Position numbers: made by a program. Of a stretch of DNA of 64,000 nucleotides, positions 6,001 to 9,000 are shown one piece after another; within the stretch, counting starts at the first letter, position 1, and each line of letters begins with the position of its first letter. The stretch lies in NCBI RefSeq assembly GCF_054482595.1, contig NZ_CM137008.1; one strand, given 5' to 3'.

Positions 6001-9000
6001 TGCCCTTCATGAGCGATTTCCCACGGGTTACGGTCATCGGTACAGAGCATGCATTGCGGGCTGTTAAATTCGTTGATCAACGGTGCCAGTGCGTTGAGAT
6101 TGCGGGCAGCGGACCCTTCGCGGATCATCAACGACATGCCGAGTTGTAATTTCCGCCGTCCTTCTTCCAGCTGATAACTTTCGTGGCAGTTTTCAATACC
6201 CGCAGCAATATAGGCGTTAAGTTCTTTACCACCCAAACCCGGGCAGTGACCGTCCAGCGTCAGGTGGCGAAATGCATCCAGTTTATCGAGCAGCGCATTC
6301 TGCCCGCTAATTACGCCAGGGTAGTCCATCATTTCTGCAAGGCCGGTAACCTGCGGATGGTCCCGCCAGGCGAGCATCTGTTCAAGGGTAAAACTGGCAC
6401 CGTTAACATCGCAGCCTTCCAGAGCGGGCACGCAAGAGCTGACCTGTAAGTACTGGTTTTGCCTTGCCTGTTCGGCACAGCGGGCAAACCAGGCGAATCC
6501 GGCTTCGCCCATCACGTTGACGATTTCATGAGGGTCGCAAATAACGGTCGTCAGGCCGCGCGGCAGAGTAGCGGTTTCAAAGGTGACCGGCGTCATCATG
6601 CTGGATTCAATATGCAGGTGAGCATCAATAAACCCTGGCACCGCCGTTGCGCCGCGGGCATCAATCCGCTGCAAAGCCGGAGCATCAGTGTATTCTGCGC
6701 CAACACCGGCAATGTAACGTCCTTTAATCACAATTGGGCCGGAAATTTCTCCGCCATTGATCAGGTCGAGAATAGAGACATTATCAATAATATAATCGGC
6801 AACAGCGTCGCCACGGGAAACGGCTAACAATTCCTGGTATTCAGCCCGGCTAATGTGATGAAATTTATGGTTAATAGAATTATTCATATTTTTCTCATTT
6901 TGATTTTATCAATTTGATTATTATTTATCATAAAGAAACGTCGCGAGATTATTAAAGAATATCCATTAATGTGCAATTGAAATGTGATAATTATCACTGA
7001 ACCGTTGTTGTCATTTGTTTTACAAAAGCAAGGGATTAAATCTCCTCCAATGGACAAAAAATGAATAATGACAATACCGATTACGTGAGTAATGAATCAG
7101 GGACGCTTTCGCGATTATTTAAACTACCTCAGCATGGGACCACCGTCCGCACAGAATTGATTGCGGGGATGACCACTTTTTTAACCATGGTGTACATCGT
7201 TTTTGTGAACCCGCAAATCCTCGGCGCGGCACAAATGGACCCGAAAGTGGTGTTTGTTACCACCTGTTTGATTGCCGGTATCGGCAGTATTGCGATGGGG
7301 ATATTTGCTAACTTACCCGTGGCGCTGGCTCCGGCAATGGGGCTGAACGCCTTCTTTGCCTTCGTGGTCGTGGGGGCTATGGGGATCTCCTGGCAAACCG
7401 GGATGGGCGCGATATTCTGGGGTGCAATTGGGCTATTTTTGCTCACGCTGTTTCGTATCCGGTACTGGATGATCTCCAACATTCCATTAAGTTTACGTAT
7501 TGGTATCACCAGTGGAATTGGATTATTTATCGCCTTAATGGGATTAAAAAATACTGGCGTTATTGTCGCCAATAAAGACACCCTGGTGATGATTGGCGAT
7601 TTAAGTTCTCACGGTGTGTTGTTAGGTATTTTAGGGTTTTTTATTATAACCGTGTTGTCATCACGTCATTTTCATGCCGCGGTGCTGGTTTCTATTGTGG
7701 TGACGTCTTGCTGTGGATTATTTTTCGGTGATGTTCATTTTAGCGGCGTCTATTCCATTCCGCCTGATATTAGCGGCGTCATTGGTGAAGTAGATTTGAG
7801 CGGCGCGTTAACACTTGAACTCGCCGGTATCATTTTCTCCTTTATGCTGATCAACCTATTTGATTCATCAGGAACATTAATTGGTGTAACTGATAAAGCT
7901 GGCTTAATAGATAGTAACGGTAAATTCCCCAATATGAATAAGGCGCTGTATGTTGATAGCGTCAGTTCGGTGGCGGGTGCGTTTATCGGCACCTCGTCTG
8001 TTACTGCCTATATTGAAAGTACTTCTGGTGTGGCAGTCGGTGGCCGCACGGGGCTGACTGCGGTTGTGGTCGGCGTTATGTTCCTGTTAGTTATGTTCTT
8101 CTCACCGCTGGTGGCGATGGTTCCTCCTTACGCAACCGCCGGAGCGTTAATCTTTGTTGGCGTGCTGATGACTTCGAGCCTGGCGCGCGTTAACTGGGAT
8201 GATTTTACCGAATCAGTGCCCGCATTTATTACCACGGTGATGATGCCCTTTACTTTCTCGATCACCGAAGGGATTGCACTCGGCTTTATGTCGTACTGCA
8301 TCATGAAAGTATGCACCGGGCGCTGGCGCGATCTGAACCTGTGTGTGGTGGTGGTCGCAGCTCTGTTTGCACTGAAGATTATTCTGGTGGATTAGTAACT
8401 GGCGAGGGTTTCCAGATATCATGAGTTCTGATTACGCAGGAGAACTCATGATCTGGATAATGCTCGCCACGCTGGCGGTAGTGTTTGTGGTTGGTTTTCG
8501 GGTGCTGACATCCGGGGCCAGAAAAGCGATTCGCCGTCTCAGCGATCGGCTGAATATCGATGTCGTACCCGTGGAGTCGATGGTCGATCAAATGGGAAAG
8601 TCAGCCGGTGACGAATTTTTACGTTATTTGCATCGTCCGGATGAGTCGCACCTGCAAAACGCCGCGCAGGTGTTGCTCATCTGGCAAATTGTCATTGTCG
8701 ATGGTAGCGAACAGAACCTGCTGCAATGGCATCGGATTTTACAAAAAGCCCGCCTTGCCGCGCCGATTACCGATGCTCAGGTCAGGCTGGCGCTGGGTTT
8801 TCTGCGCGAAACTGAACCTGAAATGCAGGATATTAATGCTTTTCAGATGCGCTATAACGCATTCTTTCAGCCTGCCGAGGGCGTTCACTGGCTGCATTAA
8901 AACCGCTTCGTCTTATCAGCCTACAGACCGTGCCTGACCTGTCGAGTGGATAAGGCGTTCACGCCGCGTCCGGTATCGGAACTGACAGTAGGTGAACGCA

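Follow-up and report, generated by a model that had tools for sequence, protein, structure and literature searches.

At proU, the negative regulatory element is said, in work of 2007 by Bouffartigues and by Lang, to consist of a pair of high-affinity sites for H-NS that follow the promoter and are separated by about 100 bp. The bgl (beta-glucoside) operon promoter of E. coli is CRP-dependent, cryptic in wild type, silenced by H-NS and woken by IS1/IS5 elements near the promoter, and PMC2753651 names bgl and ade together as cryptic, H-NS-silenced and IS-activated. PMC13274399 describes ade in the same way, and both papers cite Petersen, Moller and Valentin-Hansen (2002, JBC 277:31373). Genomic SELEX of CRP (SELEX-chip) includes yicO<>ade in group B1 of spacers with CRP sites, where two divergent promoters have one CRP site in common (Shimada 2011; PMC3105977).

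In outline, an H-NS-silenced and bgl-like control region of ade is already known. In bgl and ade alike the promoter has a CRP site and lies in an AT-rich region. For bgl, an element that matters for silencing is known further downstream, whereas ade has only a candidate block (6778..6797), which lies about 100 bp into the gene instead of several hundred. Unlike bgl, ade has a divergent partner, a transporter gene, and the CRP site is common to both. We know of no antiterminator and no BglJ/LeuO-type anti-silencing route for ade, and none was found here.

The window analysed is one stretch of 64,000 nucleotides, and the coordinates of its relevant features are collected in Table 1. The adeD product scored 1268 bits against NCBIfam NF007457 (cut-off 768), which identifies it as adenine deaminase, and the function of AdeQ appears in the EcoCyc update (PMC5210515). 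The original prediction had placed an interval of about 170 bp between ade and adeQ at 6888-7060, and this was exact: the ORF ends leave 173 bp. A 57-aa ORF across the spacer (6884..7057, minus strand) was dismissed as a gene, because it is no more than a mechanical reading frame that opens with TTG, and the non-coding DNA under it is conserved unevenly. Among 5426 complete E. coli genomes, RefSeq annotates the adeD and adeQ pair in 5410, every time on the chromosome and never on plasmids. Escherichia, Citrobacter, Kluyvera and Cedecea have spacers of 172-176 bp, and the genomic neighbourhood of the pair differs from genus to genus.

Beyond a passive AT-rich silencing pad, the spacer appears from its sequence to be a structured divergent promoter, with a CRP operator and two candidate core promoters. 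Our main reading, to which we give a probability of roughly 0.7, is that it serves as the compact back-to-back promoter/operator region of an adenine-utilisation module, adeD (deaminase) and adeQ (permease), in which silencing, CRP input and the ade core promoter are superimposed.

Table 1. Coordinates of genes and of observed or candidate control features at the ade-adeQ locus.
Feature	Position	Strand	Basis or remark
adeD (ade, yicP), adenine deaminase CDS, 588 aa	5121..6887	-	ORF; NCBIfam NF007457 equivalog; RefSeq name adeD
adeQ (yicO), adenine permease CDS, 444 aa	7061..8395	+	ORF; RefSeq 'adenine permease AdeQ'
Divergent intergenic spacer, 173 bp, 27.2% GC	6888..7060	.	gap between adeD and adeQ ORFs
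AT-rich constrained domain	6778..7086	.	trough 6811..7086 plus AT-rich invariant block 6778..6797 within ade
Invariant 20-nt block GATTATATTATTGATAATGT, ade codons 31-37 (DYIIDNV)	6778..6797	-	candidate downstream silencer or operator
ade-proximal conserved block	6888..6931	-	92% identity to six non-Escherichia lineages vs 50-59% at third codon positions
Tandem 14-nt direct repeat TTTTCTCATTTTGA / TTTTATCAATTTGA, 86% identity	6890..6917	.	overlaps ade -10 and leader
Candidate extended -10 of ade, TGaTAAAAT (6911 to 6903)	6903..6911	-	promoter scan match with TG; invariant in 8 species
CRP site TGTGATAATTATCACT	6983..6998	.	1 mismatch to TGTGA-N6-TCACA; genomic SELEX; conserved half-sites
Candidate adeQ -10 hexamer TACAAA	7021..7026	+	conserved TTTAnAA 7019..7025; inferred
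Conserved AATGGA, adeQ ribosome-binding site GGA 6 nt ahead of ATG	7049..7054	+	conservation

The strong AT-richness claimed at first for the spacer was borne out, with 27.2% GC against 50.5% window-wide, a value matched by only 0.5% of all 173-bp windows. The trough of 173-bp windows at or below 30% GC covers 6811..7086, with a minimum of 23.7%, and is the sole one before window position 22,258. It means that the AT-rich region exceeds the limits first given for it and enters the first codons of both genes. The AT-rich, constrained domain reaches about 110 bp inside the ade coding sequence. A/T tracts had been noticed too, and they are present as T5 (6889-6893), T4 (6898-6901, 6904-6907 and 7018-7021), A4 (7024-7027) and A5 (7056-7060) runs together with seven W-tracts of 6-12 nt.

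Curvature prediction had been suggested as a check on silencing, and we used a wedge model. The predicted curvature was raised without being exceptional: averaged over the spacer it ranks in the top 1.7% of 173-bp windows, and it peaks near 6890, 6920 and 7050 around a straight centre. The AT-rich and/or curved promoter DNA that marks the bgl type was therefore found here, on GC content as well as on curvature. With the H-NS high-affinity motif TCGATAAATT, the best regional matches were 8/10, at 6903..6912 and 6862..6871, and matches of this quality are frequent in the window (85 vs 65 expected).

The AT-richness might be ordinary promoter or intergenic composition, the spacer having no special silencing role and H-NS acting mainly via a coding-region element or indirectly. 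E. coli intergenic DNA is in general AT-richer than coding DNA, and this explanation would fit with the lack of a strong H-NS motif in the spacer, with its ordinary density of TpA steps (12% of windows are equally high) and with the modest excess in the promoter scan, which gave four promoter-like matches where 1.9 were expected. We nevertheless consider it quite improbable, because the spacer belongs to the lowest 0.5% of windows in GC, no second trough was found before 22,258, and the low GC is upheld in 11 other genus-level lineages, whose orthologous spacers have 25.6-37% GC while the coding DNA alongside has 48-63%. It is also opposed by the laboratory IS insertions activating ade, which map to the ade-adeQ intergenic region and to adeQ (PMC13274399). 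The AT-richness of the spacer is more than a quirk of E. coli.

H-NS silences AT-rich acquired DNA by preference, and the different neighbourhoods of the pair among genera would also suit a locus that is foreign as a whole, an acquired AT-rich island coated by H-NS. But neither AT-richness across the genes nor an accessory distribution was found. The coding GC of ade and adeQ resembles that of the host (50-51% at the E. coli loci; elsewhere it follows the host GC, up to 63%), only about 310 bp near the promoters are AT-rich, and the locus belongs to the core, present in 5410/5426 genomes on the chromosome. Composition contradicts the foreign origin, so we hold this explanation to be very improbable.

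Natural genomes gave a view of the selection on the spacer. Of 5426 complete E. coli genomes, 5389 have it without interruption, while IS1/IS5 was present in the flanking coding DNA of at least 35 records, which argues for purifying selection on the spacer. Over the 5426 genomes, natural IS1/IS5 sites are in adeQ especially and in the ade 5' coding region, which are AT-rich flanks; strains LR-48, F11 and PI24 are examples with IS1 or IS5 in adeQ. In a sample of natural isolates, all 17 mapped IS1/IS5 insertions were in the coding flanks and none in the spacer, which is a difference from bgl.

The original prediction took ade as cryptic and H-NS-silenced, and the spacer as the likely silencing target shared with adeQ. 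The first part stands at second hand (PMC2753651 and PMC13274399), while the spacer alone as the target is not established, since the constrained AT-rich domain runs about 110 bp into ade. The coverage by H-NS might include the adeQ promoter too, which is about 135 bp from the ade promoter, but a silencing of adeQ is only putative.

The CRP site is an element of the main reading given above. In the 22-mer 6980..7001 the left half AAATGTGAT is perfect, the core GTGATAATTATCAC is palindromic over all of its 14 bp, and the site has the TGTGA-N6-TCACT core of the lac CRP site. There were two CRP consensus matches in 64 kb against 1.76 expected, so a consensus match by itself is not above chance. 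Across six non-Escherichia lineages, however, the half-sites are 100% identical and the centre 67%, as in a phylogenetic footprint, against about 51-54% identity in the unconstrained parts of the spacer. Conservation is lacking at 6932..6980 and 7001..7046. The centre reads TAATTA, TTGCAA, TAACTA or TTGTAA, and a palindrome centre so variable in other genera points to CRP and not to Fur. In E. albertii one half-site reads TGTTA. Pluralibacter, Atlantibacter, Buttiauxella and Yokenella have the site too, Hafnia and Enterobacillus have it with one more mismatch, and it is conserved over about 11 genera.

The distance from the CRP centre to the ade ATG is 102-104 bp in 12 lineages; in Pluralibacter it is 93 bp, a difference of about one helical turn (10-11 bp). 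The distance from the site to the adeQ ATG is variable, from 69 to 120 bp. On the adeQ side, a -10-like TA(A/C)AAA hexamer stands at a fixed offset, 22-28 nt past the CRP 16-mer, in 12 of 13 lineages; its counterparts in other genera read TAAAAA, TAAAAG or TAGATT. The E. coli candidate is weak, has not the usual final T and failed the consensus promoter scan. It would put CRP at about -41.5/-42.5 of adeQ, a class II geometry, with the adeQ TSS predicted near 7032-7033. When the conserved -10-like hexamers are used to set putative TSS positions, the CRP centre fits about -42 for adeQ, about -94.5 for ade and -84.5 for ade of Pluralibacter; the position -94.5 is 2 bp away from the canonical class I positions.

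A single cAMP-CRP site between the promoters would thus be at class II distance from the putative adeQ promoter, and would keep a constant, helically phased spacing to the ade promoter, lying about 94 bp upstream of its putative TSS. This spacing to both promoters suggests that CRP may activate one or both genes according to carbon status. Binding of CRP in vitro is published for this spacer (PMC3105977), and the site-promoter geometry, on which the probable class of CRP action at ade and adeQ depends, comes here from conservation alone, which sets our description apart from that of group B1.

At the other end of the spacer, the ade-proximal conserved block includes the invariant run 6891..6911 (21 nt), the longest in an alignment of 8 species over 3.28 kb. 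The block is also kept in Pluralibacter, Atlantibacter, Buttiauxella and Yokenella, and TGATAA(A/T) of the candidate ade -10 is retained in Hafnia, Edwardsiella and Enterobacillus. We infer a TSS at about 6896, which would leave about 9 nt for a leader containing GAG as a Shine-Dalgarno-like element. The ade core promoter would be of the extended -10 type with this very short leader, and the near-invariance of the stretch may be due to the tight packing of the two.

The second longest invariant run of the same alignment (20 nt, the next being 11 nt) is inside ade, at 6778..6797. Its synonymous third positions have an identity of 0.96, and the block is 20/20 in Pluralibacter and Atlantibacter despite an ade CDS of 60-62% GC. 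The ade -10 block (6906..6913) and codons 33-36 (6781..6788) have ATTGATAA in common, in the same orientation and 125 bp apart, and this sequence occurs only 7 times in 64 kb. In Morganella the spacer is unalignable and has 44% GC, yet the coding block is kept 17/20 and the full 11-mer ATTGATAATGT recurs at about -33. A perfect TATAAT at 6791..6796 on the plus strand was considered as an antisense promoter and put aside as a weak idea, having no -35 and no TG.

As at proU, ade has two AT-rich, GATAA-containing sites, here 125 bp (about 12 helical turns) apart and bracketing or following the TSS. In contrast with proU, these sites match TCGATAAATT only at 8/10 and 7/10, not above chance, one of them overlaps the -10 element, and H-NS binding at them is putative. 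Tentatively, and with clearly less than even confidence, we speculate that the block 6778..6797 is a DNA-level element, serving either H-NS as a downstream site of nucleation or an unnamed factor as its operator, and that together with the ade -10 block bearing ATTGATAA it forms a phased pair that would clamp ade cryptic in at least 11 enterobacterial genera.

The same two blocks could be understood in a different way, with a dedicated, sequence-specific regulator as the main switch. It would bind both phased ATTGATAA sites, which bracket the ade start, and repress or activate by looping, H-NS being secondary. The two longest invariant runs coincide with its two putative sites, and the rarity and common orientation of ATTGATAA, the retention of the coding block and the 11-mer in Morganella and the complete block in the GC-rich genes of Pluralibacter and Atlantibacter are all counted for it. 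However, the packed -10, TSS, Shine-Dalgarno and start codon suffice to explain the upstream block, the upstream copy is not oriented in Morganella as it is in the E. coli group, and no regulator gene is linked to the ade-adeQ module. No known factor among PurR, PlaR and Fur fits. Even when up to 3 mismatches were allowed, the PUR box ACGCAAACGTTTGCGT was absent from the spacer and its surroundings. For PlaR (YiaJ), of which a SELEX paper has adeD and adeQ among the predicted targets, the box ATnTGAAACnnnGTTCAnTT was absent from the spacer with up to 3 mismatches, and there was only a half-site-like AGAAAC in its unconserved part. The Fur box was rejected, as the two conserved blocks score at most 12/19, the same as 113 other sites. 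We regard such a regulator as unlikely.

Conservation of this kind could also come from control at the RNA level, by a riboswitch, a leader/attenuator or long-range pairing of the 5' UTR with the coding region. On the ade strand there is a single terminator-like hairpin with a U-rich tail (6813..6797), and the two 11-mers of Morganella are inverted, which would allow them to pair in the mRNA. The copies of the E. coli group are direct and not inverted, the hairpin predicted ahead of the block was not conserved among 16 species, Rfam covariance models gave 0 matches at E <= 1 over 6600..7400, and the folding of ade leader and 5' coding RNA was at z = -0.13 against shuffles. The evidence as a whole contradicts this explanation weakly, and its probability seems to us very small.

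Returning to the promoter/operator region with superimposed silencing and CRP input, we suppose that it works by the logic of the bgl operon, in which a CRP-dependent promoter would be held off by H-NS and awakened by hns mutations or IS insertions. The silencing layer would be the AT-rich, moderately curved domain of about 310 bp (about 6778..7086), which extends over the two core promoters and into ade for about 110 bp. Following the published genetics, this domain would be the substrate of H-NS silencing of ade, which nearby IS insertions may lift.

Although ade is a textbook case of a "cryptic" gene, more than 99% of E. coli genomes have kept it intact, and it means that some signal must turn it on in nature. 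The rigid, deeply conserved architecture, with the CRP site locked to both promoters, narrows where this signal acts, and so does the unexplained invariant block about 100 bp into ade. The ade-adeQ locus recurs in experimental evolution with adenine cross-feeding. If the tentative clamp formed by the block 6778..6797 and the ade -10 block is true, it would mark where the natural wake-up signal of ade must act.

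The divergent genes for adenine deaminase and adenine permease are named adeD and adeQ in RefSeq, and a 551-bp probe spanning the gap found the pair on the chromosome in 5410 of 5426 complete E. coli genomes. Its neighbours in E. coli are uhpT and yicN. Comparison of the window with orthologous loci L059-L065 shows that divergent ade and adeQ travel together as a mobile module of two genes. A YdgH/BhsA-like gene and a gene of the glycosyl-transferase-3 family flank it in Pluralibacter, Atlantibacter, Buttiauxella and Yokenella, and in Hafnia, Edwardsiella and Enterobacillus the flanking genes are different again, with a HAD hydrolase gene after ade. 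Serratia sp. DD3 and Psittacicella have no adeQ beside ade.

The window is not K-12, and the A-run before the adeQ start sets it apart by one A from the majority of E. coli, C600 (a K-12 derivative) among them. This run, directly 5' of the ATG, is A5 (7056..7060) in the window and A6 in most E. coli; the RBS-to-ATG spacing of adeQ is one base shorter, and the exact 253-bp sequence of the window is common to fewer than about 92 of 5390 genomes. At the other end of the gene, AdeQ tblastn alignments stopped at residue 424 of 444 for all relatives, even 99%-identical E. coli (window 8336..8395), despite the last 11 nt of adeQ being invariant in eight species. The stop is probably a composition-filter artefact.

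Features of the ade-adeQ locus (window coordinates)
Feature	Position	Strand	Basis or remark
adeD/ade, adenine deaminase, 588 aa	5121..6887	minus	ORF and NCBIfam equivalog NF007457, 1268 bits
adeQ, 444 aa	7061..8395	plus	ORF and RefSeq annotation
Intergenic gap, 173 bp	6888..7060		between divergent ORFs; ORF boundaries
CRP site TGTGATAATTATCACT	6983..6998		TGTGA-N6-TCACA with one mismatch; core a perfect 14-bp palindrome
ade promoter run TGaTAAAAT-CAAAAT-GAGAAAAAT-ATG		minus	putative extended -10, discriminator, leader, start codon
Candidate adeQ -10	7021..7026	plus	conserved hexamer; predicted TSS ~7032
Coding block GATTATATTATTGATAATGT, 20 nt	6797..6778	minus	ade codons 31-37, DYIIDNV; 15% GC
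IS1 in AT-rich 5' part of ade CDS	6718-6726, 6767-6775, 6846-6857, 6860-6867		mapped
IS5 and ISKpn26, independent, same CTAA	6824-6827		mapped; 5' ade CDS
IS1 (one), adeQ codons 4-6	7070-7079		mapped
Ten insertions deeper in adeQ	7250, 7479-7497, 7512, 7609-7621, 7898-8001		two with adjacent deletions

The spacer had been described as strongly AT-rich with A/T tracts, and both points agree with the analysis: its GC content is 27.2% against 50.5% for the window, a level of AT-richness reached by just 0.5% of all 173-bp windows, and short T and A runs are present. The GC trough (<=30%) reaches from 6811 to 7086 and overlaps the first codons of both genes. Predicted curvature is also high, with the spacer mean in the top 1.7% of windows by a wedge model built on dinucleotide parameters, for which only the rank within the window is trustworthy. 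Predicted bends at about 6890, 6920 and 7050 flank a straight spacer centre. The density of TpA steps in the spacer was unremarkable compared with the window. Seven other troughs of <=30% GC (minima 23.7-29.5%) lie in 22258..26665 and 33019..33382, clustering at 22-27 kb and 33 kb, and the strongest predicted curvature of the window (33213) is among them. Xenogeneic silencing of a foreign island was rejected as an explanation at ade-adeQ, since the AT-rich stretch is only about 310 bp, and the locus belongs to the core genome with a coding GC that tracks the host.

Matches to the CRP consensus numbered 2 in 64 kb with 1.76 expected, so the sequence match alone is not above chance, and the site in the spacer is credible because of its comparative conservation. 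Two ortholog sets were used: Escherichia species, Citrobacter, Kluyvera, Cedecea, Morganella and Serratia; and Pluralibacter, Atlantibacter, Buttiauxella, Yokenella, Edwardsiella, Hafnia, Enterobacillus and Psittacicella. Identity to six non-Escherichia lineages was 100% in the CRP half-sites, 51-54% in the bulk of the spacer and 50-59% at third codon positions, and across lineages the 6-bp centre was free to vary (TAATTA, TTGCAA, TAACTA, TTGTAA). Invariant half-sites around a variable centre are the classic CRP footprint; reading the GATAAT-TATC core as a Fur-type site is excluded by that varying centre. By genomic SELEX, yicO<>ade was among the divergent pairs whose spacer has a CRP site (CRP SELEX-chip, PMC3105977), and adeD and adeQ were among the predicted targets of PlaR (YiaJ) (PMC6958661). 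In E. albertii (L004) the left half-site, equivalent to 6983..6987, is TGTTA and not TGTGA, the only damaged CRP core among the enterobacterial lineages sampled.

From the ade ATG to the CRP centre there are 102-104 bp in 12 lineages and 93 bp in Pluralibacter, one helical turn less. On the adeQ side the distance from the site to the ATG varies from 69 to 120 bp, and a TA(A/C)AAA-type hexamer stands 22-28 nt past the site in 12 of 13 lineages. The simplest reading is that the adeQ promoter is class II-like and CRP-dependent, and that the ade promoter, with its predicted TSS, is in helical register with the same CRP site.

The 44 bp adjoining ade (6888..6931) are 92% identical across the six non-Escherichia lineages and contain the longest invariant run of the eight-species 3.28-kb alignment (21 nt, 6891..6911). 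The ade leader has about 9 nt and carries a Shine-Dalgarno-like GAG; the extended -10 was also matched in the promoter scan. Dense packing of these elements and the start codon suffices to explain the invariance of this run. TGATAA(A/T) is retained in Hafnia, Edwardsiella and Enterobacillus, with a longer leader and a canonical Shine-Dalgarno sequence. An alternative ade -10, TATGAT (6932..6927), was ranked second, as it is unconserved in Cedecea. Further into the spacer, TTAAAGAATATCCAT at 6952..6966 resembles the RcsB/RcsAB-type box, which is TAAGAATATTCCTA, at about 10 of 14 positions; the likeness is probably chance, because its GAAT part is unconserved in other genera.

Constraint was also found inside ade, where synonymous third-position identity is 0.87 in codons 1-10, 0.96 in codons 31-40 and about 0.3-0.7 in other bins. 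The block in codons 31-37 ranks second in length among the invariant runs of the 3.28-kb alignment, ahead of one of 11 nt in third place. No base of it changes in Escherichia, Citrobacter, Cedecea and Kluyvera; it is conserved at 20/20 positions in Pluralibacter and Atlantibacter though ade there is 60-62% GC, at 19/20 in Buttiauxella and Yokenella, and at 17/20 in Morganella, where the sole differing codon is an amino-acid-changing one; it is relaxed in Hafnia, Edwardsiella, Enterobacillus and Psittacicella. The block shares ATTGATAA with the ade -10 block, 125 bp apart in the same orientation. In Morganella, whose spacer is otherwise unalignable (44% GC), the full 11-mer ATTGATAATGT occurs again, inverted, at about -33. 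RNA structure as the cause of conservation was unsupported by folding of the ade leader and 5' coding region, a hairpin or attenuator before the block was unconserved across the species compared, and a Fur box was unsupported by box scoring; no Rfam family matched at E <= 1 in 6600..7400. The leading idea is that the block may be a downstream silencer or operator, comparable to the elements downstream in bgl and proU. Petersen et al. reportedly found that silencing of ade requires sequences downstream of the transcription start, and if this holds, the block would be the obvious candidate. The constrained AT-rich domain continues into ade, and the silencing-relevant domain probably does so too.

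As summarised in PMC2753651 after Petersen et al. 2002, ade is cryptic and is activated by IS5 and other IS elements, which was attributed to relieved H-NS repression. That study (Petersen, Moller and Valentin-Hansen 2002, JBC 277:31373) is also summarised in PMC13274399, according to which activation of adeD by IS elements within adeQ was seen earlier. A kan cassette in place of yicO, directed towards yicP, appears to turn ade on (PMC3809563). Natural variation was surveyed with a chimeric query that joined 951 bp of native sequence, in each orientation, to 300 bp each of IS1, IS2, IS3, IS5, IS30, IS150 and IS186 from MG1655, so that interrupted loci ranked first. At least 35 records, some clonal, among the 5426 complete genomes had IS1, IS5 or ISKpn26 (IS1-/IS5-family) at the locus, a number that is an undercount, and 17 insertions were mapped (table). 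The ade gene is inactivated by the insertions within it; the adeQ insertions leave ade intact and may correspond in nature to the alleles that activate ade in the laboratory. A second independently struck site, at 7992-8001, carries two different IS1 variants. None of the 17 fell in the spacer (about 2.3 expected if uniform over about 1.3 kb), an absence which is only suggestive and fits the strong spacer conservation. A direct probe found 6848..7100 uninterrupted in 5389 of 5426 genomes. The sole partial match was strain ET565 (L058), in which a deletion of about 110 bp (7037..~7147) removes the adeQ RBS, start and first ~29 codons and leaves ade and the CRP site intact; it is the only truncated spacer in the 5426 genomes.

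The original prediction that the spacer is the likely H-NS silencing target of both genes is broadly right but incomplete: silencing of ade by H-NS is established in the literature, whereas adeQ is a putative target. The spacer also appears to be a precisely organised, CRP-controlled divergent promoter. In the best-supported picture, CRP-dependent promoters would sit in AT-rich DNA silenced by H-NS, as in bgl, and silencing would be escaped by the known routes of IS insertions and hns mutations. Unlike bgl, ade-adeQ is a divergent pair with one common CRP site, its candidate downstream element lies just about 100 bp inside the gene, and it is a strongly conserved core locus, not a decaying one. 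This kind of finding has been described before, as have most of its facts; the conserved promoter architecture and the invariant coding block add modestly to them.
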